Source: Escherichia coli
Lineage (GTDB): Bacteria > Pseudomonadota > Gammaproteobacteria > Enterobacterales > Enterobacteriaceae
Direction: 5' to 3' (one strand)
Assembly: GCF_046105845.1 (NCBI RefSeq)
Contig: NZ_CP151004.1
DNA length: 64,000 nt
Shown: positions 8,521 through 54,854 of the stretch, piece after piece
Layout: the number at the start of each line of letters is the position of its first letter
Numbering within the stretch: position 1 is the stretch's first letter
Notes under the pieces: generated by a model
The model's database searches: none
What the model was told of the DNA's origin: nothing
Seen by the model: only the letters and a program-made list of their open reading frames with translations
Made by a program: the position numbers and the translations under genes

Positions 8521-8521
8521 T

Positions 8522-9819: not shown

Positions 9820-9840
9820 TCCCATTTACACAGGAAGGAG

Positions 9841-10158: not shown

Positions 10159-10210
10159 TTTTTTCCTCCAGTGCGATAGCTGGAGGAAATTATTACACTC
10201 TTAAGGATAA

Positions 10211-13349
<3,139 letters not shown>

Positions 13350-13376
13350 GACTTCAGGAAGATATTACGGAGATAT

Positions 13377-13400
13377 CAGGCTCTGTGATCAGAGCCTGAC
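13377..13400. terminator. Hairpin (tcaggctctg / cagagcctga, 10-bp stem, 4-nt loop) between the convergent GH1 gene and marB
   Basis: Perfect inverted repeat read from sequence; no long T-tract. Coordinates approximate. Confidence 0.5.
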
Positions 13401-21786: not shown

Positions 21787-23205
21787 ATGCATGTACAGCC
21801 CATTTCAACTTTCCGTTTGTTCCAGGAAGGTCATCTGCTACGTAATAGCATCGCTATTTTTGCGCTAACCACGCTGTTCTATTTTATTGGTGCAGAGTTA
21901 CGGCTGGTTCACGAACTTTCTCTTTTCTGGCCGCTGAATGGCGTAATGGCGGGGGTGTTTGCCCGCTATGTCTGGCTTAATCGACTGCATTACTATGCGA
22001 TCAGTTATGTGGCAATGCTGGTTTATGATGCCATAACCACCGAATGGGGGCTGGTTTCACTGGCTATCAATTTCTCCAATATGATGTTTATTGTTACCGT
22101 CGCCTTACTGGTCGCGCGGGATAAGCGTCTGGGGAAAAATAAGTACGAGCCAGTAAGTGCCTTACGGCTATTTAATTACTGTCTGATTGCCGCATTATTA
22201 TGCGCTATTGTCGGGGCGATTGGTTCGGTCAGTATTGATAGTCTGGATTTCTGGCCTTTGCTTGCCGACTGGTTCAGTGAGCAATTCTCAACGGGCGTGT
22301 TGATCGTGCCTTGTATGCTGACGTTGGCAATTCCTGGAGTGCTGCCGCGCTTTAAAGCAGAACAGATGATGCCCGCTATCGCGCTTATTGTGTCGGTTAT
22401 TGCCTCGGTAGTCATTGGCGGAGCGGGGAGTCTGGCGTTCCCGCTGCCTGCATTAATCTGGTGTGCAGTGCGCTATACGCCGCAGGTAACATGTCTGTTG
22501 ACCTTTGTCACCGGTGCGGTTGAAATCGTACTGGTGGCAAATTCGGTGATTGATATCTCGGTCGGTTCGCCGTTCTCCATTCCGCAAATGTTCTCCGCAC
22601 GTCTCGGTATTGCCACGATGGCGATATGCCCAATTATGGTTTCTTTTAGCGTGGCAGCGATCAATTCGCTAATGAAGCAAGTTGCGCTGCGAGCCGACTT
22701 TGATTTTCTGACTCAGGTTTACTCACGGTCCGGTCTTTATGAGGCGCTGAAAAGTCCATCGCTGAAACAGACACAACATCTGACTGTCATGCTGCTTGAT
22801 ATCGACTATTTCAAAAGCATTAACGATAACTATGGACATGAATGTGGCGATAAAGTGTTAAGCGTGTTTGCCCAGCATATTCAGAAGATTGTCGGTGATA
22901 AGGGGCTGGTGGCGCGAATGGGCGGCGAAGAATTTGCTGTTGCAGTGCCATCGGTGAATCCTGTCGATGGTCTGCTAATGGCGGAAAAAATCCGTAAAGG
23001 CGTTGAACTGCAACCGTTCACCTGGCAACAAAAAACGCTTTATCTCACGGTAAGTATTGGCGTCGGTAGTGGTTGCGCATCGTACCGAACGCTGACCGAT
23101 GACTTTAATAAATTGATGGTCGAAGCCGATACATGTCTGTATCGCTCGAAGAAAGATGGGCGCAACCGTACCAGCACTATGCGTTACGGTGAGGAAGTTG
23201 TCTGA
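21787..23205 (+). CDS. dgcF: Membrane-anchored diguanylate cyclase (N-terminal multi-TM sensor domain + GGDEF)
   Basis: 472-aa ORF with hydrophobic N-terminal half and GGEEF active site (ARMGGEEFAV). The true start may lie downstream; older K-12 annotations of yneF are shorter. Confidence 0.8.
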   Translation: MHVQPISTFRLFQEGHLLRNSIAIFALTTLFYFIGAELRLVHELSLFWPLNGVMAGVFARYVWLNRLHYYAISYVAMLVYDAITTEWGLVSLAINFSNMMFIVTVALLVARDKRLGKNKYEPVSALRLFNYCLIAALLCAIVGAIGSVSIDSLDFWPLLADWFSEQFSTGVLIVPCMLTLAIPGVLPRFKAEQMMPAIALIVSVIASVVIGGAGSLAFPLPALIWCAVRYTPQVTCLLTFVTGAVEIVLVANSVIDISVGSPFSIPQMFSARLGIATMAICPIMVSFSVAAINSLMKQVALRADFDFLTQVYSRSGLYEALKSPSLKQTQHLTVMLLDIDYFKSINDNYGHECGDKVLSVFAQHIQKIVGDKGLVARMGGEEFAVAVPSVNPVDGLLMAEKIRKGVELQPFTWQQKTLYLTVSIGVGSGCASYRTLTDDFNKLMVEADTCLYRSKKDGRNRTSTMRYGEEVV

Positions 23206-33893: not shown

Positions 33894-35486
33894 ATGGCTC
33901 GACTCTTTACCCCTTCAGAATCAAAGTACTACCTGATGGCGCTGGATGCAGGCACCGGAAGTATTCGGGCTGTGATATTCGACCTGGAAGGCAATCAAAT
34001 AGCAGTGGGACAGGCGGAGTGGCGGCACCTGGCAGTACCGGACGTTCCTGGTTCTATGGAGTTTGATCTCAACAAAAACTGGCAACTGGCGTGTGAGTGT
34101 ATGCGCCAGGCGCTTCACAACGCCGGCATAGCCCCGGAGTATATCGCTGCCGTTTCGGCATGTTCGATGCGCGAAGGCATTGTTTTATATAACAATGAAG
34201 GAACACCGATCTGGGCCTGCGCCAATGTGGATGCCAGAGCGGCGCGCGAAGTTAGCGAACTTAAAGAACTGCACAACAATACCTTTGAAAACGAAGTTTA
34301 TCGCGCCACCGGACAAACGCTGGCTTTAAGCGCTATTCCCAGATTACTTTGGCTGGCGCACCATCGTTCCGATATTTACCGTCAGGCATCAACCATCACC
34401 ATGATCAGCGACTGGCTGGCCTATATGCTCAGCGGCGAACTGGCGGTGGATCCCTCTAACGCTGGCACCACGGGACTTCTTGATCTAACCACCCGTGACT
34501 GGAAACCTGCATTGCTGGATATGGCCGGACTGCGGGCCGATATTCTTTCTCCTGTCAAAGAAACCGGCACATTGCTGGGCGTGGTAAGTTCACAAGCGGC
34601 GGAACTCTGCGGTCTGAAGGCGGGCACTCCGGTGGTCGTTGGAGGAGGCGACGTGCAACTTGGTTGCCTGGGGTTAGGCGTTGTGCGTCCGGCACAAACC
34701 GCTGTTCTTGGCGGCACATTCTGGCAGCAAGTTGTAAACTTAGCCGCGCCGGTGACAGACCCAGAAATGAACGTGCGCGTTAATCCTCATGTTATTCCTG
34801 GCATGGTACAAGCTGAATCTATAAGCTTTTTTACCGGACTCACCATGCGCTGGTTCCGCGATGCTTTCTGTGCCGAAGAAAAACTGATTGCCGAACGTTT
34901 AGGCATCGACACCTATACGCTGCTGGAAGAGATGGCAAGTCGGGTGCCGCCTGGGTCGTGGGGCGTAATGCCGATATTCTCCGACAGAATGCGCTTTAAA
35001 ACCTGGTATCACGCTGCGCCTTCCTTTATTAATTTGTCTATTGATCCGGATAAATGTAACAAAGCGACGTTGTTCCGTGCGCTGGAAGAAAATGCGGCGA
35101 TTGTATCAGCGTGTAACTTGCAGCAAATCGCTGATTTCTCGAATATTCATCCTTCATCGTTAGTCTTTGCAGGCGGAGGTTCAAAAGGGAAATTATGGAG
35201 TCAAATTCTCGCTGATGTCTCGGGATTACCCGTCAATATTCCAGTGGTCAAAGAAGCCACCGCATTAGGATGTGCCATTGCAGCTGGCGTCGGTGCCGGA
35301 ATTTTTTCATCAATGGCAGAAACCGGAGAACGCCTGGTTCGCTGGGAACGGACGCACACACCAGACCCGGAAAAGCATGAACTTTATCAGGATTCACGCG
35401 ATAAGTGGCAGGCAGTTTATCAGGATCAGCTGGGGCTGGTTGATCACGGGCTGACGACGTCGTTATGGAAAGCGCCTGGGTTATAG
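33894..35486 (+). CDS. lsrK: Autoinducer-2 kinase (FGGY carbohydrate kinase family)
   Basis: 530 aa. Confidence 0.93.
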
Positions 35487-35495
35487 TTTCATTGA

Positions 35496-35532
35496 CAGCC
35501 ACATCATGATGACCGTGGCTGTTAGTTTTTGA
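35496..35532 (+). terminator. Rho-independent terminator after lsrK (acagccac...gtggctgt followed by tagttttt)
   Basis: Stem-loop plus T-run. Coordinates approximate. Confidence 0.6.
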
Positions 35533-36009
35533 GTATTCTTATTTCCCTTCTTTTAGATCTGGTTTGTTAAATGCCAGCTTGCAGATTCATCGTTCCATCG
35601 CCAGTAATATATTCAAGGGGAAATTGCTATTTTTCTTAAAATATTAAGCATAACCCTTATTTTATAGCGAATATTCCTAAAGACATAAATGAATGAAAAA
35701 GAGTTTTAATAGAGTTCTTTTTTAGCAATTAATGCTATTCTTTGTTAAATATGATGATGGTAATTTTCTTATTGAAAGAAACATTTTTCTTATTAAGCAA
35801 CAATAACTCATGGTTCATTTTTAAATAAAATAAGAACTATGCAATTTTTAATCTATCAATTCGAAAGTATTAGCAAATGAGCCAAATTGACACCTTCCCA
35901 CCTCCAACCAACACTCAATACAGACCTCTGACAACTTAATAAGTTTCATTTTTAACGTCTGATGACTCATCTCTTTCGTGGCTGTATTGTTTGTATATGG
36001 AGCGTTTAT

Positions 36010-39000
36010 ATGAATAGAATCTATCGCGTGATATGGAATTGCACCCTACAGGTATTTCAGGCCTGCTCGGAATTAACTCGCAGGGTAGGTAAAACATCAA
36101 CGGTTAATTTGCGTAAATCCTCTGGACTGACAACGAAATTCAGTAGATTGACGCTGGGTGTTTTGCTGGCACTAAGCGGTTCAGCGTCTGGTGCGAGTCT
36201 GGAAGTTGATAATGATCAGATTATCAATATTGATACTGATGTTGCTTATGATGCCTACCTGGTTGGGTGGTATGGCACTGGAGTGCTTAATATTTTGGCT
36301 GGCGGTAATGCCTCCTTAACCACTATTACTACCAGCGTCATTGGTGGTAATGAGAACTCGAAGGGCACCGTTAATGTTTTGGGTGGCACCTGGCGATTGT
36401 ATGATAGCGGAAATAATGCAAGGCCTTTAAATGTGGGCCAATCCGGAACGGGGATGCTGAATATTAAACAGAAGGGGCACGTTGACGGAGGCTATTTAAG
36501 ATTAGGTACTCAAGCTGTAGGCGTCGGGATGGTTAATGTTGAGGGAGAGGACTCGGTTCTGACGACCGAATTATTCGAAATAGGGAGTTACGGTACAGGC
36601 TCATTAAATATTACGGATAAGGGTTACGTCACGAGTTCAATCGTCGCCATTGTAGGATATCAGGCGAACAGCACTGGTAAGGTTGTCGTTGAAAAGGGTG
36701 GCGAGTGGCTAATAAAAAATAATGATTCCTCAATTGAATTTCAAATTGGTAATCAAGGAACTGGGGAGGCGACTATTCGCGAGGGTGGACTGATTACGGC
36801 TGAAAATACGATTATCGGTGGCAATGCCACCGGTATCGGAACCCTGAATGTGCAGGATCAAGACTCTGTCATCACGGTACGCAGAGTCTATAATGGATAT
36901 TTCGGTAATGGCACAGTCAATATTTCCAATAATGGACTGATTAATAATAAAGAATATTCATTGGTGGGCGTTCAGGACGGGTCCCACGGTGTCGTCAACG
37001 TGACCAATAAAGGGCATTGGAATTTCCTCGGAACGGGCGAAGCTTTCCGCTATATCTATATCGGTGATGCTGGCGACGGTGAACTTAATGTCTCTAGTGA
37101 AGGCAAAGTAGATTCGGGAATTATCACTGCGGGGATGAAAGAAACAGGCACAGGCAACATTACTATTAAGGATAAGAACTCCATTATCACTAATCTCGGA
37201 ACTAATCTTGGTTATGACGGCCACGGCGAAATGAATATCAGTAATGAGGGGCTTGTTATCAGCAACGGAGGAAGCTCACTCGGTTATGGAGAAACCGGCG
37301 TCGGGAAGGTTAGCATCACCACGGGGGGGATGTGGGAGGTCAATAAGAATGTCTATACCACCATTGGTGTTGCGGGCGTCGGAAACCTCAATATCAGCGA
37401 TGGCGGTAAGTTCGTATCGCAAAATATTACTTTTTTGGGCGATAAAGCAAGCGGTATCGGCACACTGAACCTGATGGATGCGACATCATCGTTCGATACT
37501 GTAGGTATCAATGTCGGTAATTTTGGTAGCGGCATCGTAAATGTCAGTAATGGTGCCACCCTTAATTCAACGGGCTATGGATTTATCGGAGGAAATGCCT
37601 CCGGTAAGGGGATAGTTAATATTTCAACGGATAGTCTCTGGAATTTAAAAACGTCATCTACTAACGCCCAATTGTTACAGGTCGGTGTATTAGGCACGGG
37701 TGAACTGAATATTAGCACCGGAGGTATAGTTAAAGCGCGTGATACACAAATAGCTCTCAATGACAAAAGTAAGGGCGACGTGCGGGTGGATGGGCAGAAC
37801 TCTCTTCTTGAAACATTCAATATGAACGTAGGGACGACTGGCACAGGTACGTTAACCCTGACGAATAACGGTACGCTGAATGTCGAAGGTGGAGAAGTTT
37901 ACTTAGGTGTTTTTGCGCCTGCTGTAGGAACGCTAAACATTGGTGCTGCTCACGGTGAGGCGGCGGCAGATGCCGGATTTATCACCAATGCGACGAAAGT
38001 GGAGTTTGGTCTTGGCGAAGGCGTTTTTGTCTTTAATCATACCAATAACAGTGATGCCGGCTACCAGGTCGATATGCTGATTACGGGTGACGATAAAGAC
38101 GGAAAAGTGATGCATGATGCAGGCCATACGGTGTTCAATGCAGGGAATACTTATAGCGGTAAAACGTTGGTCAATGGCGGCCTCCTGACCATTGCGTCAC
38201 ATACGGCAGATGGGGTAACGGGCATGGGTTCGAGTGAAGTAACCATTGCAAACCCCGGTACGCTCGACATTCTCGCATCAACGAACAGTGCAGGAGATTA
38301 CACGCTGACCAATGCGCTCAAAGGCGATGGCTTGATGCGAGTGCAGCTGTCATCCTCCGACAAAATGTTTGGCTTTACCCATGCAACAGGAACTGAATTC
38401 GCCGGTGTTGCCCAACTGAAAGACAGTACCTTCACACTGGAACGCGACAACACCGCTGCGCTTACTCACGCGATGCTTCAGTCTGACAGTGAAAATACCA
38501 CATCGGTAAAAGTGGGAGAGCAATCCATTGGTGGACTAGCCATGAATGGCGGTACGCTCACTTTCGATACGGATATACCTGCTGCGACGCTCGCGGAGGG
38601 ATATATCAGCGTCGATACGCTGGTTGTCGGCGCGGGTGACTACACCTGGAAAGGCCGTAACTATCAGGTAAACGGGACGGGCGACGTGCTTATCGACGTG
38701 CCTAAACCGTGGAATGATCCCATGGCGAATAACCCTCTGACGACGCTCAATTTGCTGGAACACGATGATAGTCATGTCGGCGTTCAACTGGTGAAGGCGC
38801 AAACGGTTATTGGGTCGGGTGGCTCATTAACGTTACGTGATTTACAGGGCGACGAGGTGGAAGCGGACAAAACGTTACATATTGCACAAAACGGGACAGT
38901 GGTCGCCGAGGGTGATTATGGATTCCGCCTCACGACCGCTCCTGGTGATGGTTTGTATGTTAACTATGGGCTGAAAGCGCTGAACATCCATGGTGGGCAA

Positions 39001-41430
39001 AAGCTGACGTTAGCCGAACATGGCGGAGCCTATGGCGCAACGGCCGATATGTCGGCAAAAATCGGTGGTGAAGGGGATCTGGCAATCAATACGGTGCGAC
39101 AGGTTTCGCTTTCTAACGGTCAGAACGACTATCAGGGGGCAACCTACGTTCAGATGGGGACATTACGTACCGATGCGGATGGCGCTCTGGGCAATACTCG
39201 GGAACTGAACATCAGCAACGCGGCCATCGTCGATCTTAATGGATCGGAGCAGACGGTAGAGACATTCACCGGGCTGATGGGTTCGACTATTTTGTTCAAA
39301 GAAGGTTCGCTGACGGTGAATAAAGGTGGGATCAGTCAGGGCGAACTGACAGGTGGCGGAAACCTGAATGTTACAGGGGGAACACTGGCTATCGAGGGGC
39401 TTAATGCACGCTACAATGCGTTAACCAGCATTAGCCCAAATGCGGAAGTCAGCCTCGACAATACGCAGGGGTTAGGCAGAGGAAATATTGCCAATGACGG
39501 TCTGTTAACGCTAAAAAACGTGACCGGCAAACTGCGCAATAGCATAAGCGGTAAAGGTATCGTGAGCGCAACCGCCAGCACAGACGTAGAGCTGGATGGC
39601 GATAATAGCCGCTTTGTGGGGCAATTCAACATCGATGCAGGCAGCGCGCTCAGCGTCAACGAGCAGAAAAACCTGGGTGATGCTTCCGTTATCAATAATG
39701 GCCTGCTCACCATCGCCACTGAGCGTAGCTGGGCGATGACGCACAGTATCACCGGTAGCGGCGATGTGACAAAACTGGGGACCGGGATCCTGACTCTTAA
39801 CAACGATTCCGCGGCGTATCAGGGTACGACGGATATCGTGGGTGGTGAAATTGCTTTCGGTTCCGACTCTGCCATTAATATGGCAAGTCAGCACATTAAT
39901 ATCCATAACAGCGGTGTGATGTCGGGAAATGTCACCACTGCAGGTGATGTGAACGTTATGCCAGGGGGGACACTGCGTGTCGCTAAAACCACTGTCGGCG
40001 GTAACCTGGAGAATGGTGGCACGGTTCAAATGAACAGCGAAGGGGGGAAACCGGGGAATGTACTGACCGTTAACGGCAACTATACCGGAAACAATGGCCT
40101 GATGACGTTCAACGCGACGCTGGGTGGCGATAATTCGCCCACGGATAAAATGAACGTGAAAGGCGATACCCAAGGGAATACTCGCGTTCGGGTTGATAAC
40201 ATTGGCGGCGTCGGTGCACAAACGGTCAACGGTATTGAACTCATTGAGGTTGGCGGTAATTCTGCAGGTAAATTCGCGCTGACCACCGGAACTGTCGAAG
40301 CTGGGGCTTACGTCTACACGCTGGCTAAAGGGAAGGGGAATGACGAGAAAAACTGGTATCTGACCAGTAAATGGGACGGCGTAACGCCAGCGGATACACC
40401 CGATCCCATCAATAATCCCCCTGTTGTGGATCCGGAAGGCCCATCAGTTTATCGCCCGGAGGCCGGAAGCTATATCAGCAACATTGCCGCAGCCAACTCG
40501 CTGTTTAGCCATCGCTTACACGACCGTCTGGGTGAGCCGCAGTATACAGATTCACTGCATTCTCAGGGTTCGGCAAGCAGTATGTGGATGCGTCATGTCG
40601 GGGGGCACGAACGTTTCAGGACCGGTGACGGCCAGCTAAATATTCAGGCTAACCGCTATGTATTGCAGCTAGGAGGCGATTTGGCGCAGTGGAGTAGCAA
40701 CGCGCAGGATCGCTGGCATCTCGGCATCATGGCAGGCTATGCCAATCAGCACAGTAATACTCAGAGTAATCATGTGGGTTATAAATCGGATGGGCGCATC
40801 AGCGGTTACAGCGCAGGACTGTACGCGACCTGGTATCAGAACGATGCGAATAAGACCGGCGCTTATGTTGACAGCTGGGCGCTGTATAACTGGTTTGATA
40901 ACAGCGTCAGTTCCGATAACCGTTCTGCTGACGACTATGATTCTCGCGGTGTGACGGCCTCTGTTGAGGGGGGGTATACCTTTGAAGCGGGAACATTTAG
41001 CGGCAGCGAAGGGACGCTGAATACCTGGTACGTCCAGCCACAGGTACAAATCACCTGGATGGGTGTGAAAGATTCTGACCATACCCGGAAAGACGGAACA
41101 CGCATTGAAACGGAAGGCGACGGAAACGTGCAAACGCGACTTGGGGTGAAAACCTACCTGAACAGCCATCACCAGCGTGACGATGGTAAACAGCGTGAGT
41201 TCCAGCCTTACATTGAAGCGAACTGGATCAACAACAGCAAAGTCTACGCCGTGAAGATGAATGGTCAAACCGTAAGCCGTGATGGTGCGCGTAATCTCGG
41301 TGAAGTACGTACCGGGGTTGAGGCGAAAGTAAATAACAACCTTAGCCTGTGGGGGAATGTCGGTGTGCAACTAGGTGATAAAGGCTATAGCGATACTCAG
41401 GGCATGCTGGGAGTGAAATATATCTGGTAA
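36010..41430 (+). CDS. yneO: AIDA-I/Ag43-type autotransporter adhesin with extended signal peptide region, degenerate repetitive passenger and C-terminal beta-barrel translocator; intact
   Basis: ORF 35962..41430. The likely start is the ESPR motif MNRIYRVIWNCTLQVFQACSELTRRV at 36010, followed by a classical signal peptide (LTLGVLLALSGSASGAS). The passenger carries repeated G-x-GTG-x-LNI-type units; the barrel ends ...GMLGVKYIW. Positional orthologue of the K-12 yneO/ydeK pseudogene between lsrK and hipB (from memory). Confidence 0.88.
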   Translation: MNRIYRVIWNCTLQVFQACSELTRRVGKTSTVNLRKSSGLTTKFSRLTLGVLLALSGSASGASLEVDNDQIINIDTDVAYDAYLVGWYGTGVLNILAGGNASLTTITTSVIGGNENSKGTVNVLGGTWRLYDSGNNARPLNVGQSGTGMLNIKQKGHVDGGYLRLGTQAVGVGMVNVEGEDSVLTTELFEIGSYGTGSLNITDKGYVTSSIVAIVGYQANSTGKVVVEKGGEWLIKNNDSSIEFQIGNQGTGEATIREGGLITAENTIIGGNATGIGTLNVQDQDSVITVRRVYNGYFGNGTVNISNNGLINNKEYSLVGVQDGSHGVVNVTNKGHWNFLGTGEAFRYIYIGDAGDGELNVSSEGKVDSGIITAGMKETGTGNITIKDKNSIITNLGTNLGYDGHGEMNISNEGLVISNGGSSLGYGETGVGKVSITTGGMWEVNKNVYTTIGVAGVGNLNISDGGKFVSQNITFLGDKASGIGTLNLMDATSSFDTVGINVGNFGSGIVNVSNGATLNSTGYGFIGGNASGKGIVNISTDSLWNLKTSSTNAQLLQVGVLGTGELNISTGGIVKARDTQIALNDKSKGDVRVDGQNSLLETFNMNVGTTGTGTLTLTNNGTLNVEGGEVYLGVFAPAVGTLNIGAAHGEAAADAGFITNATKVEFGLGEGVFVFNHTNNSDAGYQVDMLITGDDKDGKVMHDAGHTVFNAGNTYSGKTLVNGGLLTIASHTADGVTGMGSSEVTIANPGTLDILASTNSAGDYTLTNALKGDGLMRVQLSSSDKMFGFTHATGTEFAGVAQLKDSTFTLERDNTAALTHAMLQSDSENTTSVKVGEQSIGGLAMNGGTLTFDTDIPAATLAEGYISVDTLVVGAGDYTWKGRNYQVNGTGDVLIDVPKPWNDPMANNPLTTLNLLEHDDSHVGVQLVKAQTVIGSGGSLTLRDLQGDEVEADKTLHIAQNGTVVAEGDYGFRLTTAPGDGLYVNYGLKALNIHGGQKLTLAEHGGAYGATADMSAKIGGEGDLAINTVRQVSLSNGQNDYQGATYVQMGTLRTDADGALGNTRELNISNAAIVDLNGSEQTVETFTGLMGSTILFKEGSLTVNKGGISQGELTGGGNLNVTGGTLAIEGLNARYNALTSISPNAEVSLDNTQGLGRGNIANDGLLTLKNVTGKLRNSISGKGIVSATASTDVELDGDNSRFVGQFNIDAGSALSVNEQKNLGDASVINNGLLTIATERSWAMTHSITGSGDVTKLGTGILTLNNDSAAYQGTTDIVGGEIAFGSDSAINMASQHINIHNSGVMSGNVTTAGDVNVMPGGTLRVAKTTVGGNLENGGTVQMNSEGGKPGNVLTVNGNYTGNNGLMTFNATLGGDNSPTDKMNVKGDTQGNTRVRVDNIGGVGAQTVNGIELIEVGGNSAGKFALTTGTVEAGAYVYTLAKGKGNDEKNWYLTSKWDGVTPADTPDPINNPPVVDPEGPSVYRPEAGSYISNIAAANSLFSHRLHDRLGEPQYTDSLHSQGSASSMWMRHVGGHERFRTGDGQLNIQANRYVLQLGGDLAQWSSNAQDRWHLGIMAGYANQHSNTQSNHVGYKSDGRISGYSAGLYATWYQNDANKTGAYVDSWALYNWFDNSVSSDNRSADDYDSRGVTASVEGGYTFEAGTFSGSEGTLNTWYVQPQVQITWMGVKDSDHTRKDGTRIETEGDGNVQTRLGVKTYLNSHHQRDDGKQREFQPYIEANWINNSKVYAVKMNGQTVSRDGARNLGEVRTGVEAKVNNNLSLWGNVGVQLGDKGYSDTQGMLGVKYIW

Positions 41431-41437
41431 ACCTTAT

Positions 41438-41467
41438 AAGCCGCATGTCGAAGATGGCATGCGGCTT
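41438..41467 (+). terminator. 10-bp perfect stem hairpin (aagccgcatg / catgcggctt) immediately after the autotransporter stop
   Basis: Inverted repeat read from sequence; weak T-tract. Confidence 0.45.
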
Positions 41468-41506
41468 AATATTGCCGACTTCAAACGACTTTTAAATCCT
41501 CCTTTT

Positions 41507-41620
41507 TATCCGCGATCGCGGATATCACAGCGTTTATCCCGTAGAGCGGATAAAATGTGTTTCCTGATTGACTTTATCCCCACTAAAGGATAAAACTGAT
41601 AATATCCCCTTGAGCGGATA
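41507..41620 (+). promoter_or_regulatory. hipBA operator region: four HipB operators of the form TATCC-N8-GGATA
   Basis: Four copies read directly: TATCCgcgatcgcGGATA (~41507-41524), TATCCcgtagagcGGATA (~41535-41552), TATCCccactaaaGGATA (~41575-41592), TATCCccttgagcGGATA (~41603-41620). Confidence 0.85.
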
Positions 41621-41641
41621 AATATGCTGTGGACGTATGAC

Positions 41642-41908
41642 ATGATGAGCTTTCAGAAGATCTATAGCCCAACGCAATTAGCGAATGCAATGAAACTGGT
41701 TCGTCAGCAAAATGGCTGGACGCAGAGCGAGCTGGCGAAAAAAATCGGTATTAAGCAGGCGACAATTTCCAATTTCGAAAACAACCCTGACAATACCACG
41801 CTCACGACATTTTTTAAGATTTTACAGTCGCTTGAACTCTCAATGACGCTATGCGACACGAAAAATGCCTCGCCAGAATCAACAGAACAGCAAGATCTGG
41901 AGTGGTAA
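41642..41908 (+). CDS. hipB: Antitoxin HipB (Cro/C1-type HTH)
   Basis: ORF 41624..41908; conserved start MMSFQKIYSPTQLANAMKLVRQQNGWTQSELAKKIG at 41642 (88 aa). Confidence 0.93.
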   Translation: MMSFQKIYSPTQLANAMKLVRQQNGWTQSELAKKIGIKQATISNFENNPDNTTLTTFFKILQSLELSMTLCDTKNASPESTEQQDLEW

Positions 41909-43510: not shown

Positions 43511-43765
43511 GTGCAAATGAACACCCCCTCTTTCCATCAACACTTCAGACAGCTTGCGGGAATGAGTCCACTCCGGTATCAGAAATGGCTACGCCTCAAT
43601 GAAGCCAGGCGACTGATGCTGAATGAACATTACGATGTCACCACTGCAGCCTATGCTGTCGGTTACGAAAGCTTATCCCATTTCAGTCGGGAATATTCGC
43701 GGATGTTTGGAGAGTCACCTAAGAGAGATATTACCGGGTTAAGAAAGTCTGTCGGTCAGCTTTAA
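43511..43765 (+). pseudogene. yneL: AraC-family regulator remnant (C-terminal HTH domain only)
   Basis: 84-aa ORF HFRQLAGMSPLRYQKWLRLNEARRLMLNEHYDVTTAAYAVGYESLSHFSREYSRMFGESP is the second AraC HTH; no N-terminal effector domain ORF upstream. Confidence 0.55.
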
Positions 43766-44198
43766 TAAACCCTGCACTTATCTGTTTAGAGCAATTCCGT
43801 GTTAGTTACACCAGTCAAACATTAACCATAGCTAATGTTTTATAGCCATATAAACCATTGGCCGCTCTTGACCTTTCCTGACACTTCCCTTGTTCGCAAT
43901 AATATTCTGTTTAGTCGCTGTTTATAAATAACATGCATAATGAAATCGTAATGTTATTTAGCGACATAAAATGTCTTTGCAAATACTCTCTACAACAAGT
44001 GCTGCAATAAACTTGTTGTGATTAGGTGTCCTTGTAATTTAAAGATATTATCGTTCTTCGTGAAATGTAATAACCCTGGAAACTATATTCTCAGGGCAAT
44101 ATCCCATCAAGAATGATTCTTGTTTTATAAGCAATAACAGAATTACTTAATTGTTAACTTTCTTTATTCAGCTACTTAAATATAAATTTTGGAGAATT

Positions 44199-44762
44199 AT
44201 GAAACTCAAACATGTCGGTATGATTGTCGTTTCTGTGTTGGCGATGTCGTCTGCTGCGGTAAGCGCAGCCGAGGGTGATGAATCAGTAACGACCACTGTT
44301 AATGGCGGTGTTATTCATTTTAAAGGTGAAGTGGTAAATGCCGCTTGTGCGATTGATTCAGAATCAATGAACCAAACGGTTGAGCTGGGTCAGGTCCGTT
44401 CTTCTCGTCTGGCTAAAGCGGGTGACCTCAGCTCCGCCGTTGGCTTCAATATCAAGCTGAATGATTGTGATACCAATGTTTCCAGTAATGCAGCTGTTGC
44501 ATTCCTGGGTACTACTGTCACCAGTAATGACGATACCTTAGCGCTGCAGAGTTCAGCGGCAGGCTCTGCCCAAAATGTCGGTATTCAAATTTTGGACCGT
44601 ACGGGGGAGGTATTAATACTTGATGGTGCCACTTTTAGCGCTAAAACCGACTTGATTGATGGCACGAATATACTGCCATTCCAGGCTCGTTATATTGCTC
44701 TCGGGCAGTCAGTAGCTGGTACTGCAAACGCTGATGCGACCTTCAAAGTTCAATATCTATAA
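44199..44762 (+). CDS. F9-type fimbrial major subunit (FimA-like pilin)
   Basis: ORF 44151..44762; start taken at [23 protein letters not shown] (44199) after GGAG; pilin-like with a conserved Cys pair. Absent from K-12 (from memory). Confidence 0.85.
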
Positions 44763-44803
44763 TTCAATCTTAAGGTGGCTATACGTCATCTGAAATTGAA
44801 ACA

Positions 44804-44832
44804 GGGTGTGTGTGGCATGGCTACGCACACCC
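44804..44832 (+). other. Intercistronic stem-loop (gggtgtg...cgcacaccc) downstream of the fimbrial major subunit gene
   Basis: Imperfect inverted repeat read from sequence; no T-tract. Such hairpins typically set major-subunit to assembly-protein stoichiometry in chaperone-usher operons. Confidence 0.4.
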
Positions 44833-45113
44833 GAGCAATTCACCAATGTGAATCTCATTATTAATGAGGAGTGGTTTGTATTTGGAGCACTATGAAAAAT
44901 CACATAATATCTAAACGTTCAATAAACAACAGTAGTTAAACTTACTGTTATTTAAAATATTTACTTTGTAGCAAGGTTTTCCTGTTAAAAGAGAACCAAC
45001 ATTTATTACAAACGCATTAAGTCTGGAAACCCAGCGAGTCGCCGATGTATTAGCAACATTTACCGATTGTCTGATGTAACGGTTTCCCCGCTTATCCTCT
45101 TAACACATGGAGA

Positions 45114-45833
45114 ATGCATCAGATGCAAACTACGCGTACCCCCTACTCTGTTTCCTTTATGGCGACAGTGTTACTTTTATTGGTCTTTGCTTGCCATAGC
45201 ACCATTGCCAACGCAGCTGTCGCACTGGGTGCGACGCGGGTAATTTATCCGGCAAACCAGAAACAGGTTTTATTGCCTGTCACGAATAATGATCCTGCCA
45301 GTGTCTATCTCATTCAGTCATGGATAGAAAATGCAGGTGACCAAAAAGACACCCAGTTTGTCATTACCCCACCGCTTTTTTCCATGCAAGGTAAAAAAGA
45401 GAATACGCTGCGGATAATCAACGCCACTAATCATCAGTTACCAGGCGACCGTGAAAGCCTGTTCTGGGTGAATGTTAAAGCTATTCCTGCTATGGAAAAA
45501 GACCAGAAGAATGAGAATACATTACAGCTGGCAATTATTAGCCGCATAAAAATGTTTTATCGCCCCACGAACCTGGCAATGGCACCTGAAGAAGCGCCTG
45601 CAATGCTTCGGTTTCGTCGCAGCGGTAGCAAACTCACTCTTATTAATCCAACGCCCTACTTCATTACCGTAACAAATATGAAAGCAGGAAATAGCAATCT
45701 CCCAAACACCATGGTGCCGCCAAAAGGTGAAGTATCGGTGGATATCCCGCATGCTGCAACCGGGGATATCAGTTTTCAGACGATCAATGATTACGGTGCA
45801 TTAACTCCGCGTATTAAGGCAACCATGCAGTAA
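45114..45833 (+). CDS. Periplasmic fimbrial chaperone (PapD/FimC family)
   Basis: 239-aa ORF; mature N-terminus AVALGATRVIYP is typical of FimC-like chaperones. The start may be a downstream ATG. Confidence 0.85.
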   Translation: MHQMQTTRTPYSVSFMATVLLLLVFACHSTIANAAVALGATRVIYPANQKQVLLPVTNNDPASVYLIQSWIENAGDQKDTQFVITPPLFSMQGKKENTLRIINATNHQLPGDRESLFWVNVKAIPAMEKDQKNENTLQLAIISRIKMFYRPTNLAMAPEEAPAMLRFRRSGSKLTLINPTPYFITVTNMKAGNSNLPNTMVPPKGEVSVDIPHAATGDISFQTINDYGALTPRIKATMQ

Positions 45834-45874
45834 GCCAGTGACCTAATTAATAATAAACTCAATCGGAATTAAAA

Positions 45875-48526
45875 ATGACAGCCTTTCGTGCCGCATTTAA
45901 GGCATATCGTATGCATCAGGTGTTACTACTGCCTCGCTTTGCACGGCTTACCATTGCCCTTGGCTTAGCAACTGCGGTATTTCCCGTTGACGCAGAGTAT
46001 TATTTTAATCCACGGTTTTTAAGCAATGATCTTGCTGAATCTGTCGATTTATCCGCCTTTACTAAGGGACGCGAGGCACCACCTGGTACATATCGGGTCG
46101 ACATTTATTTGAACGACGAATTTATGACTAGTCGGGATATTACTTTTATTGCAGATGATAATAACGCAGATCTCATCCCATGCCTGAGTACAGATCTTCT
46201 TGTCAGTCTTGGCATAAAAAAATCAGCGTTATTAGACAATAAAGAACATTCGGCAGAAAAACATGTGCCGGACAACAGCACATGCACACCACTTCAGGAT
46301 CGTTTGGCTGACGCATCATCTGAGTTTGATGTTGGTCAGCAACATCTGTCACTCTCCGTTCCGCAAATTTATGTTGGCAGAATGGCTCGCGGCTATGTTT
46401 CTCCGGATCTGTGGGAAGAAGGAATAAATGCTGGGCTACTAAACTATAGTTTTAATGGTAATTCTATTAATAATCATAGTAACCATAATGCAGGAAAATC
46501 CAACTATGCATATTTGAATTTACAGAGTGGCATCAACATTGGTAGTTGGCGACTGCGTGATAACTCAACGTGGAGTTATAACAGTGGGAGTAGCAATTCA
46601 TCTGACAGCAATAAATGGCAGCATATCAATACGTCGGCTGAACGTGACATTATTCCCTTACGCTCACGGTTAACGGTGGGTGATAGTTATACCGATGGCG
46701 ATATTTTTGATAGTGTGAACTTTCGTGGCCTCAAAATAAATTCAACAGAAGCGATGTTGCCCGATAGCCAACATGGTTTCGCTCCGGTGATTCATGGTAT
46801 TGCCCGTGGCACAGCACAAGTGAGTGTAAAACAGAATGGATACGATGTTTATCAGACTACTGTTCCACCCGGCCCTTTTACTATTGATGATATCAACTCT
46901 GCGGCCAATGGTGGTGATCTGCAAGTAACCATAAAAGAGGCAGACGGCAGTATTCAGACATTATATGTTCCTTATTCGTCTGTTCCGGTTCTCCAACGTG
47001 CTGGATATACGCGTTATGCGCTTGCCATGGGGGAATATCGTAGTGGAAATAACCTGCAAAGCTCCCCCAAGTTCATACAAGGTAGCTTGATGCATGGACT
47101 GGAAGGAAACTGGACACCTTATGGCGGAATGCAAATTGCAGAAGATTATCAGGCCTTCAACCTTGGTATTGGTAAAGATTTAGGACTTTTTGGTGCCTTT
47201 TCTTTCGATATCACGCAGGCCAATACGACACTTGCAGATGGCACCCGTCACAGCGGGCAATCGATTAAATCCGTCTACAGCAAATCCTTCTACCAGACGG
47301 GAACCAATATCCAGGTCGCAGGATATCGCTATTCTACGCAAGGTTTTTATAACTTATCCGACAGTGCCTACAGTCGAATGAGTGGTTACACCGTCAAGCC
47401 TCCTACCGGAGACAGCAATGAGCAGACACAATTTATTGATTATTTTAATCTGTTCTACAGTAAGCGTGGTCAGGAACAAATAAGCATCTCTCAGCAGCTT
47501 GGAAATTACGGTACGACATTTTTCAGTGCCAGTCGCCAAAGTTACTGGAACACGTCACGCAGCGACCAGCAAATATCATTTGGATTAAATGTGCCGTTTG
47601 GCGATATTACAACTTCGCTGAATTACAGCTATTCCAATAATATATGGCAAAACGATCGGGATCATTTACTTGCTTTTACGCTTAATGTTCCCTTCAGTCA
47701 TTGGATGCGTACAGACAGTCAGTCGGCATTTCGTAATTCAAACGCCAGTTACAGTATGTCAAACGATTTGAAAGGCGGCATGACCAATCTATCAGGGGTT
47801 TATGGCACTCTGCTGCCGGATAATAACCTGAATTATAGCGTTCAGGTAGGTAACACCCACGGAGGTAATACATCGTCTGCCACCAGTGGTTACAGTTCTC
47901 TTAATTATCGTGGAGCTTACGGTAATACTAATGTCGGTTACAGTCGGAGTGGGGACAGCAGCCAGATTTATTACGGAATGAGTGGTGGGATTATTGCTCA
48001 TGCTGATGGCATCACCTTTGGTCAGCCGCTGGGCGACACAATGGTTCTGGTTAAGGCTCCTGGCGCTGATAATGTCAAAATAGAGAACCAGACCGGAATT
48101 CATACCGACTGGCGTGGCTATGCCATATTACCATTTGCGACAGAATATAGAGAAAATCGTGTCGCTCTTAACGCGAATTCCCTTGCAGATAATGTTGAAC
48201 TGGATGAAACCGTGGTCACTGTCATCCCAACTCACGGTGCTATTGCCAGAGCAACATTTAATGCACAAATCGGCGGGAAAGTATTAATGACGTTGAAGTA
48301 CGGTAATAAGAGCGTTCCATTCGGTGCAATTGTCACTCACGGAGAGAATAAAAATGGCAGCATTGTCGCGGAAAACGGTCAGGTTTATCTGACTGGACTT
48401 CCACGGTCAGGGAAATTACAGGTTTCATGGGGCAATGATAAAAACTCAAACTGTATAGTCGATTACAAGCTTCCTGAAGTCACTCCTGGAACCTTACTGA
48501 ACCAGCAGACAGCAATCTGTCGCTAA
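45875..48526 (+). CDS. ydeT: Outer-membrane fimbrial usher (FimD/PapC family), full length
   Basis: 883-aa ORF; likely start at MHQVLLLPRFARLTIALGLATAVF (45911). Full length here, whereas K-12 ydeT is a truncated pseudogene (from memory). Confidence 0.85.
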   Translation: MTAFRAAFKAYRMHQVLLLPRFARLTIALGLATAVFPVDAEYYFNPRFLSNDLAESVDLSAFTKGREAPPGTYRVDIYLNDEFMTSRDITFIADDNNADLIPCLSTDLLVSLGIKKSALLDNKEHSAEKHVPDNSTCTPLQDRLADASSEFDVGQQHLSLSVPQIYVGRMARGYVSPDLWEEGINAGLLNYSFNGNSINNHSNHNAGKSNYAYLNLQSGINIGSWRLRDNSTWSYNSGSSNSSDSNKWQHINTSAERDIIPLRSRLTVGDSYTDGDIFDSVNFRGLKINSTEAMLPDSQHGFAPVIHGIARGTAQVSVKQNGYDVYQTTVPPGPFTIDDINSAANGGDLQVTIKEADGSIQTLYVPYSSVPVLQRAGYTRYALAMGEYRSGNNLQSSPKFIQGSLMHGLEGNWTPYGGMQIAEDYQAFNLGIGKDLGLFGAFSFDITQANTTLADGTRHSGQSIKSVYSKSFYQTGTNIQVAGYRYSTQGFYNLSDSAYSRMSGYTVKPPTGDSNEQTQFIDYFNLFYSKRGQEQISISQQLGNYGTTFFSASRQSYWNTSRSDQQISFGLNVPFGDITTSLNYSYSNNIWQNDRDHLLAFTLNVPFSHWMRTDSQSAFRNSNASYSMSNDLKGGMTNLSGVYGTLLPDNNLNYSVQVGNTHGGNTSSATSGYSSLNYRGAYGNTNVGYSRSGDSSQIYYGMSGGIIAHADGITFGQPLGDTMVLVKAPGADNVKIENQTGIHTDWRGYAILPFATEYRENRVALNANSLADNVELDETVVTVIPTHGAIARATFNAQIGGKVLMTLKYGNKSVPFGAIVTHGENKNGSIVAENGQVYLTGLPRSGKLQVSWGNDKNSNCIVDYKLPEVTPGTLLNQQTAICR

Positions 48527-48539
48527 GGAACAATAGATT

Positions 48540-49070
48540 ATGAAATACAATAACGTTATTTTCCTCGGTTTATGTCTGGGGTTAACCACCTATTCTGCTT
48601 TATCCGCAGATAGCGTTATTAAAATTAGCGGGCGCGTCCTCGATTATGGCTGCACAGTCTCATCGGATTCGCTTAATTTTACCGTAGATCTCCAAAAAAA
48701 CAGTGCCAGACAATTTCCAACGACCGGTAGCACAAGTCCAGCCGTCCCTTTTCAGATTACGTTAAGTGAATGCAGCAAAGGGACAACGGGGGTTCGAGTT
48801 GCATTTAACGGGATTGAGGATGCAGAAAATAATACTCTGTTGAAACTGGATGAAGGAAGCAATACAGCCTCCGGTTTGGGTATAGAAATACTGGACGGAA
48901 ATATGCGTCCGGTGAAATTGAATGACCTTCATGCCGGGATGCAGTGGATCCCACTGGTACCAGAACAGAACAATATTTTGCCTTACTCCGCTCGTCTGAA
49001 GTCAACTCAGAAGTCCGTCAATCCGGGACTGGTGAGGGCTTCGGCAACCTTTACCCTTGAATTTCAATAA
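48540..49070 (+). CDS. ydeS: Fimbrial minor subunit
   Basis: 176 aa with signal peptide; length matches YdeS. Confidence 0.85.
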   Translation: MKYNNVIFLGLCLGLTTYSALSADSVIKISGRVLDYGCTVSSDSLNFTVDLQKNSARQFPTTGSTSPAVPFQITLSECSKGTTGVRVAFNGIEDAENNTLLKLDEGSNTASGLGIEILDGNMRPVKLNDLHAGMQWIPLVPEQNNILPYSARLKSTQKSVNPGLVRASATFTLEFQ

Positions 49071-49082
49071 TCAGAGTCAGAT

Positions 49083-49586
49083 ATGAAAAGACTTCACAAG
49101 AGGTTCCTGTTAGCTACGTTTTGCGCGTTATTCACAGCAACTCTCCAGGCCGCCGATGTCACTATCACTGTTAATGGTCGGGTAGTCGCTAAACCCTGCA
49201 CTATTCAAACCAAAGAAGCTAACGTTAATCTCGGGGATCTTTATACACGCAATCTGCAACAACCTGGCTCTGCATCTGGCTGGCACAATATTACTTTGTC
49301 ATTAACCGATTGTCCGGTTGAAACAAGTGCAGTGACGGCAATCGTGACAGGTTCAACTGACAATACGGGTTATTACAAAAATGAAGGTAGTGCCGAAAAT
49401 ATTCAGATAGAGCTGAGGGACGACCAGGATGCTGCGTTAAAAAATGGCGATAGCAAAACGGTTATTGTTGATGAGATCACTCGTAATGCACAGTTTCCAC
49501 TTAAGGCAAGAGCTATCACGGTGAATGGAAACGCAAGCCAGGGAACGATCGAGGCTCTAATCAATGTGATCTACACCTGGCAATAA
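49083..49586 (+). CDS. ydeR: Fimbrial minor subunit
   Basis: 167 aa with signal peptide; length matches YdeR. Confidence 0.85.
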   Translation: MKRLHKRFLLATFCALFTATLQAADVTITVNGRVVAKPCTIQTKEANVNLGDLYTRNLQQPGSASGWHNITLSLTDCPVETSAVTAIVTGSTDNTGYYKNEGSAENIQIELRDDQDAALKNGDSKTVIVDEITRNAQFPLKARAITVNGNASQGTIEALINVIYTWQ

Positions 49587-49645
49587 CGTCGATTCGATTT
49601 TCTTAGCCTCCTTTTTAAATCAATTTTTTAACCTTAGGATATATC

Positions 49646-50560
49646 ATGGGTAAAACAATAAGTATGAAGCTTCTGTTCGGTATTTATCTTCTATTAATGG
49701 CAGGCAAAGTTTTTGCCTTCAGTTGTAATGTCGATGGCGGGTCAAGTATTGGAGCAGGTACAACCTCTGTTTATGTTAATCTCGACCCTGTAATACAACC
49801 GGGCCAGAATCTGGTTGTAGACTTGTCTCAGCACATAAGTTGCTGGAATGATTACGGCGGCTGGTACGACACTGATCATATAAACCTGGTACAAGGCTCA
49901 GCTTTCGCAGGCTCTCTACAGTCATATAAAGGATCGCTGTACTGGAATAATGTGACCTACCCCTTCCCGTTGACGACAAATACTAATGTATTAGATATTG
50001 GTGATAAGACACCGATGCCATTACCGTTAAAACTCTATATTACCCCAGTCGGTGCGGCCGGTGGAGTTGTCATAAAAGCCGGGGAAGTTATTGCCCGTAT
50101 TCATATGTATAAAATTGCCACGTTAGGAAGCGGAAATCCGCGTAATTTTACGTGGAATATTATTTCAAATAACAGTGTTGTTATGCCAACAGGCGGCTGC
50201 ACCGTTGATAGTCGTAATGTCAACGTGAATCTCCCGGACTTTCCTGGAAGCGCAGAAATACCCCTTGGCGTATATTGCTCAAGTGAACAAAAGCTCTCAT
50301 TTTATCTTTCGGGTGCTACCACTGACAGTGCCAGACAAGTGTTTGCTAACACAGCACCAGATGCAACAAAAGCATCGGGAGTGGGTGTCTCTCTGATGCG
50401 TAATGGAAAAATACTGGCTACGGGAGAAAACGTCTCCCTGGGGACAGTAAATAAAAGCAAAGTACCTCTGGGTTTAAGCGCAACCTATGGACAAACAGGA
50501 AACAAGGTTGCAGCCGGAACCGTCCAGTCAGTCATTGGTGTCACTTTTATCTATGAATAA
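49646..50560 (+). CDS. ydeQ: Fimbrial tip adhesin (FimH-like two-domain)
   Basis: 304 aa with signal peptide; length matches YdeQ. Confidence 0.85.
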
Positions 50561-53308: not shown

Positions 53309-53419
53309 ACTCCGCTCAGTACTGAAGCGCCAGTCCTATTTCCTCTATTCTCCAGCCTGTTATATTAAGCATACTGATTAACGATGCTTAACGTCATTCG
53401 TTTAATAAACATATTTGAA

Positions 53420-53617
53420 ATGCATGCGACCATAGTGAAAAATAAAATCACGCAAAGAGACAACTATAAAGGGATCATGTCTGTAATTGTGGTTGTATTA
53501 TTACTGACCCTTACATTGATAGCCATTTTTTCGGCAATTGATCAGCTGGGTATTTCAGAAATGGGTCGCATTGCAAGGGATCTTACACATTTCATTATCA
53601 ATAGTTTGCAAGACTGA
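53420..53617 (+). CDS. safA: Small membrane connector protein SafA (links EvgS/EvgA to PhoQ/PhoP)
   Basis: ORF 53384..53617; conserved start MHATIVKNKITQRDNYKGIMSVIVVVLLLTLT at 53420 (65 aa). Confidence 0.85.
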   Translation: MHATIVKNKITQRDNYKGIMSVIVVVLLLTLTLIAIFSAIDQLGISEMGRIARDLTHFIINSLQD

Positions 53618-53691
53618 AAATAAACAGCAAATTATAAATATGAAATGTTAAAAAAGTATCGATAAAAACTTTATTGTTTTAAGGAGATAAA

Positions 53692-54453
53692 ATGTCGCTC
53701 GTTTGTTCTGTTATATTTATTCATCATGCCTTCAACGCTAACATTTTAGATAAAGATTACGCCTTCTCTGACGGCGAGATCCTGATGGTAGATAACGCTG
53801 TTCGTACGCATTTTGAACCTTATGAGCGGCATTTCAAAGAAATCGGATTTAATGAAAATACCATTAAAAAATATCTACAATGCACTAACATCCAGACAGT
53901 GACGGTGCCTGTTCCTGCGAAGTTTTTACGTGCTTCAAATGTACCGACTGGATTGCTTAATGAAATGATTGCTTATCTCAACTCGGAAGAACGCAATCAT
54001 CATAATTTTTCAGAACTTTTGCTTTTTTCTTGCCTGTCTATTTTTGCCGCATGCAAAGGTTTCATTACACTATTAACTAACGGTGTGCTATCCGTTTCCG
54101 GGAAAGTGAGAAATATTGTCAACATGAAGCTGGCGCACCCATGGAAGCTGAAAGATATTTGTGACTGCCTGTACATCAGTGAAAGCCTGCTCAAGAAAAA
54201 ACTAAAGCAAGAGCAAACGACATTCTCACAGATTCTTTTAGATGCCAGAATGCAGCACGCAAAAAATTTGATACGCGTAGAAGGTTCTGTTAATAAAATT
54301 GCCGAACAATGTGGTTATGCCAGTACATCTTATTTTATTTATGCGTTCCGCAAACATTTCGGCAACAGTCCGAAGAGAGTTTCTAAGGAGTACCGTTGTC
54401 AAAGGCACACGGGAATAAATACGGGCAACACGATGAATGCTTTAGCTATTTGA
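53692..54453 (+). CDS. ydeO: AraC-family acid-resistance regulator
   Basis: 253 aa with C-terminal AraC HTH; matches YdeO. Confidence 0.92.
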   Translation: MSLVCSVIFIHHAFNANILDKDYAFSDGEILMVDNAVRTHFEPYERHFKEIGFNENTIKKYLQCTNIQTVTVPVPAKFLRASNVPTGLLNEMIAYLNSEERNHHNFSELLLFSCLSIFAACKGFITLLTNGVLSVSGKVRNIVNMKLAHPWKLKDICDCLYISESLLKKKLKQEQTTFSQILLDARMQHAKNLIRVEGSVNKIAEQCGYASTSYFIYAFRKHFGNSPKRVSKEYRCQRHTGINTGNTMNALAI

Positions 54454-54501
54454 TTATTTGCTAACGAGTAGTCAACCACACACGCTACGTAAGAATTAAA
54501 T

Positions 54502-54533
54502 GGGGCAGCCATTTCCTGCCCCGCGTTGTTTTT
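54502..54533 (+). terminator. Rho-independent terminator after ydeO (ggggcag-ccatttc-ctgcccc followed by gcgttgttttt)
   Basis: GC stem plus T-run. Confidence 0.7.
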
Positions 54534-54854
54534 AGGCGATATATTTATTGAAATAAATAAGTGACATTCATCACATATTTATGCATTTGCATAACCCGTT
54601 GCATGATTATTTATGATCTCAATTCGGCATTTTGTCAGTAAAATACAATAATTTATTAAATATCAATAGATTAGTTGTTTATCATCGAGAAATTACTTAG
54701 TAGAACAGAAAGTAATGTCAACGCTTTATGGACTGTTATTTCCCTTTTTTTAGCTAAATCTGCTATCTCTTTATGTGACTAACTTCACTTACATTCACTT
54801 ATTTCTCTTCGTAAAATTACTTTGGAATTAAGTACAATAAGAAGAGGAACATTT

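Follow-up and report, generated by a model that had tools for sequence, protein, structure and literature searches.

An intact yneO allele of the ECSE_1600 autotransporter family in Escherichia coli, at a locus frameshifted in K-12

Does the interval between lsrK and hipB of Escherichia coli, which in K-12 holds the frameshifted gene yneO, encode a working surface protein in other members of the species? The question is raised by a stretch of 64,000 nucleotides from the E. coli assembly GCF_046105845.1 (contig NZ_CP151004.1), referred to here as the window, in which an uninterrupted frame of 1,806 codons (36010-41430, plus strand) is sited between these two genes. A preliminary description of the window, made from its letters alone, had proposed positions 35487-41470 as an intact autotransporter gene, possibly a functional adhesin. 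The gene is an intact allele of E. coli yneO (formerly ydeK plus ydeU; ECSE_1600 family), and it very probably encodes a type Va autotransporter that is conditionally expressed and acts, most likely, as a surface adhesin or binding protein.

The integrity of the gene is the first point to be settled. Re-inspection of 36010-41430 revealed no hidden frameshift or stop, and the single intact 1,806-residue frame of the preliminary description therefore stands. Its interval is correct for the whole unit, which begins immediately behind the lsrK stop and closes with the 3' hairpin, but is wider than the reading frame itself. The longest open reading frame of the region is in fact 35962-41430 (plus strand; 1,822 codons). 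On sequence grounds, the start codon is ATG 36010 (MNRIYRVIWN) and not the upstream ATG 35962, because a GGAG stands 7 nt before the former, and the latter, a single-nucleotide polymorphism of the strain haplotype, reads ACG in all six aligned comparison strains. The equivalent of 36010 is also the start annotated by RefSeq in other genomes. Translation from this codon contains MNRIYRVIWNCTLQVFQACSELTRRV, ends in GVKYIW and is exactly 1,806 residues long. The lsrR and lsrK genes lie upstream and hipB and hipA downstream, which is the position of yneO in K-12, and the same lsrK-hipB placement is met in the window, K-12, PCN033, H10407, 2013C-4282 and C4 (the window reads in the opposite direction to the ydfG-pqqL region of K-12). 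The hairpin just past the lsrK stop is likely to be the lsrRK terminator, in which case the autotransporter gene would be a separate transcription unit; a second hairpin behind its own stop codon is a probable terminator, and with strong hairpins at both ends the gene looks monocistronic. An Rfam scan of 35300-41800 returned nothing at the gathering threshold. The elements that delimit the gene are the following.

35491-35526, plus strand: hairpin followed by a U-run (UUAGUUUUU after the stem), just past the lsrK stop; folding energy -17.4 kcal/mol, z -3.9
35999-36002, plus strand: Shine-Dalgarno sequence GGAG, 7 nt before the ATG, read from the sequence
36010-41430, plus strand: coding sequence of the 1,806-residue type Va autotransporter of the ECSE_1600/YneO family, stop codon included (NF011422; exact NCBI protein)
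41437-41468, plus strand: strong hairpin with a weak U-run, 7 nt past the stop codon; folding energy -22.5 kcal/mol, z -4.75

The family is equally clear. The NCBIfam profile NF011422 ('ECSE_1600 family autotransporter') aligns residues 1-1806 with profile positions 1-1806 at 4106 bits, against a cut-off of 2335, and an identical protein under the same family name is already present in NCBI (e.g., EHK3780532.1), on 10 contigs. By all sequence criteria the protein is a monomeric (classical) type Va autotransporter with the canonical domain order of ESPR, PATR, AC_1/Pertactin and Autotransporter. These domains came from a Pfam search, suggested earlier as a check, which found the ESPR, autochaperone, Pertactin and Autotransporter domains. 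The ESPR-type leader was recovered at residues 1-47 (PF13018, E 5.6e-14), and behind it stand a hydrophobic core, LTLGVLLAL, and then an SGA motif, after which cleavage by signal peptidase I is probable. PATR repeats were detected near residues 710, 1040 and 1253. The autochaperone is covered by AC_1 (PF18883, residues 1332-1438, E 2.7e-26) and by the Pertactin domain (residues 1335-1452, E 1.2e-10), and it aligns with the autochaperone of IcsA (PDB 3ml3). The complete C-terminal barrel ending in KYIW, as previously described, was found with PF03797 (residues 1525-1784, E 7e-42) and with TIGR01414 (403 bits, NCBIfam); the C-terminal 460 residues align with nearly the whole chain of the AIDA-I beta-domain (PDB 4mee, E 5e-88, and E 2e-86 in a separate search), which makes this an AIDA-I-like translocator.

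36010-36195, plus strand: ESPR extended signal peptide, residues 1 to about 62 (Pfam ESPR)
40003-40323, plus strand: autochaperone, residues 1332-1438 (AC_1, Pertactin, 3ml3), the region of lowest dN/dS, the ratio of nonsynonymous to synonymous divergence
40582-41427, plus strand: 12-strand outer-membrane beta-barrel translocator, residues 1525-1806, with a terminal W (PF03797, TIGR01414, 4mee)

Some database entries name the protein a lipoprotein ('putative lipoprotein YdeK', 'autotransporter barrel domain-containing lipoprotein'). This label was rejected. The first 90 residues contain no lipobox, and the only cysteines, at residues 11 and 19, both fall within the ESPR, which leaves the mature protein free of cysteine; the word 'lipoprotein' in these names is thus unsupported.

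What separates this allele from that of K-12 is a single event of reading frame. The MG1655 copy (yneO, b4696) is marked 'frameshifted' by RefSeq, and its alignment with the window shows 174 substitutions and one indel, a 1-base insertion in K-12 that turned a run of seven G into a run of eight. Because of the extra G, the K-12 gene falls into the former ydeK (1,325 codons) and ydeU; once one G is removed, a frame of 1,806 amino acids is restored, with 97.0% identity to the protein of the window. The K-12 counterpart had been described as frameshifted, and so it is, being neither intact nor identical. The exact 76-mer with eight G was found in 389 of the 5,426 complete genomes, and every one of these that was listed is a laboratory strain of the K-12 lineage; the 76-mer that is one base shorter is widespread among natural isolates. 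The lesion site reads as follows.

39964-39969, plus strand: lesion site in the window, CCA GGG GGG ACA, a run of six G
Same site in close intact relatives of K-12 (AR202.2, E1535, SCU-113): CCT GGG GGG GCA, a run of seven G
Same site in K-12: one extra G, a run of eight G

A lesion of this kind raises the possibility that the gene is a phase-variable contingency locus, switched on and off by slippage at poly-G, with the K-12 pseudogene as a reversible off state. Runs of at least six G or C are about 18 times denser in the reading frame (five, or 0.92 per kb) than in the other 58 kb (three, or 0.05 per kb). Besides, four indels in ydeK have been reported in K-12 mutator lines, including a 1-bp deletion at nt 3962 (PMC6427688). 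By position all four lie at G runs, and the deletion at nt 3962 would restore the frame. Nevertheless, shuffles of codon order gave 3.1 +/- 1.6 runs, and 77 of 500 reached five, so that the excess is accounted for as a by-product of glycine-rich coding. Moreover, the eight-G allele, being found among the genomes listed in the K-12 lineage only, is not scattered as switching predicts, and the window has just six G at the K-12 site. Runs of six to eight are also much less prone to slippage than classical contingency tracts. Programmed phase variation is for these reasons very improbable and was dropped as the principal explanation, on the shuffle expectation and on the confinement of the eight-G allele among those genomes. 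The G runs do make the gene fragile, since both the K-12 lesion and all four mutator-line indels fall at them.

Inactivation of yneO is by no means limited to K-12. In the O157:H7 strain F6321, an 8-bp tandem duplication (AATCGGCG twice) lies about 30 nt downstream of the K-12 site, and strain 361 has a stop at codon 17. The copies of enterotoxigenic E. coli (ETEC) H10407 and of THO-008 are frameshifted, and further genomes of the sample described below have partial deletions or insertions of the insertion sequences IS1, IS2, IS3 or IS5. BL21-type strains are without the first 4.3 kb of the gene, and GF130 is without the entire gene and parts of lsr and hipBA. The K-12 and O157 lesions, some 30 nt apart, are located directly upstream of the region coding for the autochaperone, in a gene rich in G runs.

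How common, then, is the intact state? The locus was matched in 4,371 of 5,426 complete E. coli genomes and covered to at least 80% in 3,958, with a best whole-locus DNA identity of 98.3%. Twelve records were picked from an evenly spaced sample of the ranking of these matches; the gene is intact at 1,806 amino acids in nine and broken in K-12, O157:H7 F6321 and strain 361. Two clusters of 1,806-residue proteins, formed at 90% identity, comprise 5,726 and 18,868 sequences, about 24,600 together. The genome paper of strain SE11 had already tabulated in 2008 an intact gene for SE11 and HS, a disrupted one for MG1655, E24377A and O157 Sakai, and none for the B2 strains CFT073, UTI89 and 536 (PMC2608844). 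An intact copy is the common state in natural E. coli. The rarity implied by the preliminary description therefore does not hold: an intact copy is what one normally finds, and of the listed genomes only those of the K-12 lineage have the K-12 lesion. The finding is correct and already known, as the gene, the family name, the distribution and the K-12 status are all in annotation and in the 2008 paper. As a discovery it matters little, this being an ordinary gene, in its usual place, from a family that already has a name; its modest value is the reminder that purifying selection preserves, in most natural E. coli, a large surface protein that K-12 lacks.

The evidence for such selection comes from ten intact alleles. 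They are of equal length and differ at 5-11% of synonymous sites (dS up to 0.11), and their pairwise dN/dS against the window is 0.14-0.20 overall, being lowest in the autochaperone (0.04-0.09) and reaching 0.16-0.33 in the N-terminal repeats. A homologue from another genus, that of Pseudocitrobacter faecalis, has the same length of 1,806 amino acids and 85-86% identity, and a relative in Citrobacter amalonaticus has 46% identity. The low dN/dS, the equal length and the homologue in another genus point to purifying selection wherever the gene survives, beside frequent lineage-specific loss. This pattern of sequence change suggests that intact alleles are kept for function.

Whether the gene is expressed is a question for its leader, which contains the elements listed here.

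35487-36009, plus strand: AT-rich intergenic leader and promoter region, 523 bp (GC content; K-12 tables from genomic SELEX, systematic evolution of ligands by exponential enrichment)
35721-35735, minus strand: perfect marbox (MarA/SoxS/Rob type), GCATTAATTGCTAAA, its centre 282 bp before the start codon
35928-35956, plus strand: counterpart of the predicted K-12 yneO sigma-70 promoter (alignment)

The roughly 500 bp of AT-rich DNA noted upstream of the gene correspond to this 523-bp spacer, which has the lowest GC of the window. Positions 35531-36009 have 29.9% GC, against a window mean of 46.7%, and among stretches of that length across the 64-kb window just 0.08% have so little GC, all of them overlapping the lsrK-yneO spacer. 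In tables from genomic SELEX on K-12, 'HNS' appears for the yneO-lsrK spacer, together with a site of the RpoD holoenzyme and a proposed yneO promoter, CTGACA-17-TTTAAT, that is predicted and not mapped (PMC3946193). Binding of the RpoS holoenzyme in the same spacer has also been found by genomic SELEX in K-12 (PMC5493296). The counterpart of the -10 element (35951-35956) is TTTAAC in the window and TTTAAT in the six comparison strains. A scan with the sigma-70 consensus found no site in the leader, and sites in the region were fewer than in shuffles. The leader is 92.8% identical to that of K-12. Three substitutions within 30 bp of predicted core promoter and 5' untranslated region (35935, 35956 and 35963) set it apart from the six comparison strains; one of them alters the -10 hexamer, and another creates the in-frame upstream ATG at 35962, hence the appearance of a gene of 1,822 codons. 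This leader haplotype, traced with an exact 76-mer, is common to 89 complete genomes, and the gene is intact in two of the three that were checked. Given the AT-rich leader, the 'HNS' entry in K-12 and a high-affinity marbox, the gene is probably expressed conditionally, and at a low level in the laboratory.

Several points weigh against an expressed and useful adhesin. The TTTAAC hexamer could weaken the predicted promoter; the many independent inactivations mean that the gene is dispensable in many niches; 1,055 of the 5,426 complete genomes are without any match to the locus; and the searchable literature yielded no experiment on the YneO protein, the adhesion proposal coming from fold and family. 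Taken further, the gene might be cryptic, that is, intact yet silenced by H-NS, contributing little and drifting to the state of a pseudogene. That the leader is the most AT-rich stretch of the window, with 'HNS' listed in the K-12 spacer (PMC3946193), would fit such a history, and so would the -10 variant and the independent lesions and deletions in K-12, O157, H10407 and others. On the other hand, relaxed selection would push dN/dS toward 1, and the value is about 0.15 over 1,806 codons. In addition, no length change has occurred among the ten alleles despite their synonymous divergence, a homologue of equal length exists in another genus, and the conserved high-affinity MarA site suggests conditional expression over permanent silence. 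A cryptic gene is accordingly a minority possibility, to be taken seriously and still rather unlikely, and conditional expression of an intact YneO is preferred.

The marbox deserves separate comment. Its sequence, GCATTAATTGCTAAA, has its sole match in the 64 kb at this site, where 0.03 would be expected, and it is identical to the grxA/ybjC marbox tabulated in a chromatin immunoprecipitation sequencing study of MarA in ETEC H10407. In that study a strong MarA site was assigned to yneO and binding was confirmed in vitro (PMC5684230). The position of the H10407 site was checked and lies 283 bp upstream of the start codon, and the marbox of the window is at the equivalent position. It may be proposed, speculatively and with more doubt than confidence, that in natural E. 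coli MarA, or perhaps SoxS or Rob, turns on an intact YneO through this conserved marbox about 280 bp upstream. Were this true, the antibiotic and stress (mar) response would be tied to altered surface adhesion, and the link would have been missed because both strains examined, K-12 and ETEC H10407, have frameshifted copies. The marRAB operon itself lies about 20 kb from the marbox in the same window.

What the protein would do at the surface depends on its passenger, of about 1,270 residues and predicted to be a beta-helix, for which the regions below were distinguished.

36241-37944, plus strand: N-terminal passenger, residues 78-645, about 20 rungs (motif recurrence; TIGR04393 eight times; AlphaFold2 all-beta, predicted local distance difference test, pLDDT, mostly above 90)
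37945-40002, plus strand: C-terminal passenger, residues 646-1331, predicted beta-helix with PATR repeats, 30-48% identical to many giant autotransporters
38509-39171, plus strand: central conserved module, residues about 834-1054, with strands of 11-14 residues and short helices; no Pfam family

Recurrent units through roughly the first 600 residues had been noticed before, and the recurrence is real, although its period is about 25 residues, one rung of the helix, and not 55-60. A unit of 24-26 residues with the motif G-x-G-x-L-N-I/V occurs in about 20 copies over residues 78-645, at a start-to-start spacing of mostly 23-26 residues, or of about 50 where a weaker rung intervenes. The two-rung repeat of 49 residues, TIGR04393, is counted eight times by NCBIfam. 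At the DNA level no repeats of at least 18 nt were found other than two pairs of chance size (18-19 nt), and for this reason DNA repeats were ruled out as the cause of shorter database variants. The shorter database proteins (1,450-1,714 amino acids) are assorted internal deletions, some of which remove the autochaperone; those that are longer carry a fusion with lsrK or hipA. Residues 55-1254 were modelled with AlphaFold2 from an alignment of 48 sequences, and the model is all-beta (mean pLDDT 91.5, predicted template modelling score 0.73), its short strands following one another in triplets as in a beta-helix. The first Foldseek matches of this passenger model are Ag43 and TibA, and the nearest solved folds are all autotransporter passengers, namely Vag8, TibA, UpaB and Ag43. 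No catalytic domain was detected anywhere in the protein by Pfam, NCBIfam or the fold search. Because there is no enzyme domain and the nearest folds are passengers of binding autotransporters, an adhesin or binding role is the most likely one, and the protein may be a functional adhesin, with which the dN/dS of 0.14-0.20, the confident beta-helix model and the nearest folds are consistent.

The central module is strongly conserved. It is common to thousands of very large autotransporters, including a Termitidicoccus protein of 7,137 amino acids, and its aligned relatives have the motifs YDYRLTT and DGLYVNYGL. A fold search gave generic beta-helix matches for it, with no specific solved structural analogue. 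A module so strongly conserved, with no Pfam family and no such analogue, might be the active part of a passenger that is not an adhesin and serves instead in host-factor binding, immune evasion or another effector role. This is improbable, as TibA, UpaB, Ag43 and EtpA match nearly as well and the searches by Pfam, NCBIfam and fold yielded no catalytic domain; the likeness to beta-helices is in any case generic and says little on the ligand. For the adhesin or binding protein that is preferred here, the pathway we infer by analogy with type Va systems that have been studied in detail would begin with export of the precursor through Sec, slowed by the ESPR-extended signal peptide. The 12-strand C-terminal barrel would then be inserted in the outer membrane via the beta-barrel assembly machinery, and the passenger would be threaded outward C-terminus first, with the autochaperone nucleating its folding. 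The result would be a long right-handed beta-helix whose tip consists of about 20 rungs of 25 residues, with a more elaborate conserved stalk below, and this displayed helix might bind a surface or host ligand, aiding colonization or aggregation.

Other features of the window may be described briefly. A complete chaperone-usher fimbrial operon occupies 44151-50560 (a FimA-like subunit, a chaperone, a full-length usher of 883 amino acids, ydeS, ydeR and ydeQ); its K-12 counterpart has only a truncated usher (ydeT), and the first two genes are missing. This operon is a second adhesin locus that has decayed in K-12 and is whole in the window. Between eamA and marB, at about 7600-13400, lies a block absent from K-12 that includes a GntR-family regulator (7625-8323, minus strand), a LamB-like porin (10214-11806) and a 6-phospho-beta-glucosidase (11904-13349). 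In this block, a cellobiose-type phosphotransferase system (PTS) IIC gene is probably disrupted, being split into two open reading frames (8909-9424 and 9292-9819) whose matches are confined to the ends of a profile of 424 positions. The diguanylate cyclase gene dgcF (yneF; 21787-23205) has a full frame of 472 amino acids; in K-12 it is annotated as a pseudogene truncated at the N terminus. An open reading frame of 84 codons (43511-43765), situated between hipA and the fimbrial operon, matches only the C-terminal helix-turn-helix of AraC-family regulators and is a remnant like the yneL fragment of K-12. The overall GC content of the window, 46.7%, is low beside the approximately 50.8% of E. 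coli, and very AT-rich intergenic stretches (e.g., 54441-54919, 43761-44239 and 53401-53879) are found near the ydeO/ydeP acid-resistance genes and the fimbrial genes.

Finally, the protein can be set against known autotransporters. With ECSE_1600 of SE11 and YneO of K-12 it shares the lsrK-hipB locus, the length of 1,806 amino acids and about 97% protein identity; the differences are allelic only, the leader of the window having TTTAAC and the extra upstream ATG. The resemblance to AIDA-I is partial. Autochaperone, linker and barrel are homologous, and both proteins have an ESPR leader and a beta-helix passenger, predicted in the present case. The passenger, however, is without the imperfect 19-residue AIDA repeats (Pfam to E 10), its unit being of 24-26 residues, and the AIDA-I profile NF033176 reaches 356 bits, where 1200 are required, over residues 1298-1804 only. 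Furthermore, unlike AIDA-I and TibA, the gene has no adjoining heptosyltransferase of the Aah or TibC type, its flanks being lsrK and hipB. The term 'AIDA-type' used in the preliminary description thus applies to the translocator and the autochaperone (4mee) and fails for the passenger repeats, the AIDA-I score and the adjacent heptosyltransferase; on these three grounds, membership of the AIDA-I or self-associating autotransporters, as judged by sequence, was rejected. Sequence identity to Ag43 and TibA is just 12-18%, and the passenger is about twice the size of their solved fragments or more, with a central elaborated module. A phase switch of the Dam/OxyR type was not met with, no search having been aimed at one. 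The best named family after its own is that of MisL, involved in intestinal colonization by Salmonella and encoded in SPI-3, at 463 bits over residues 1480-1805; this is far under the MisL cut-off of 1297, and the likeness concerns the barrel region only.

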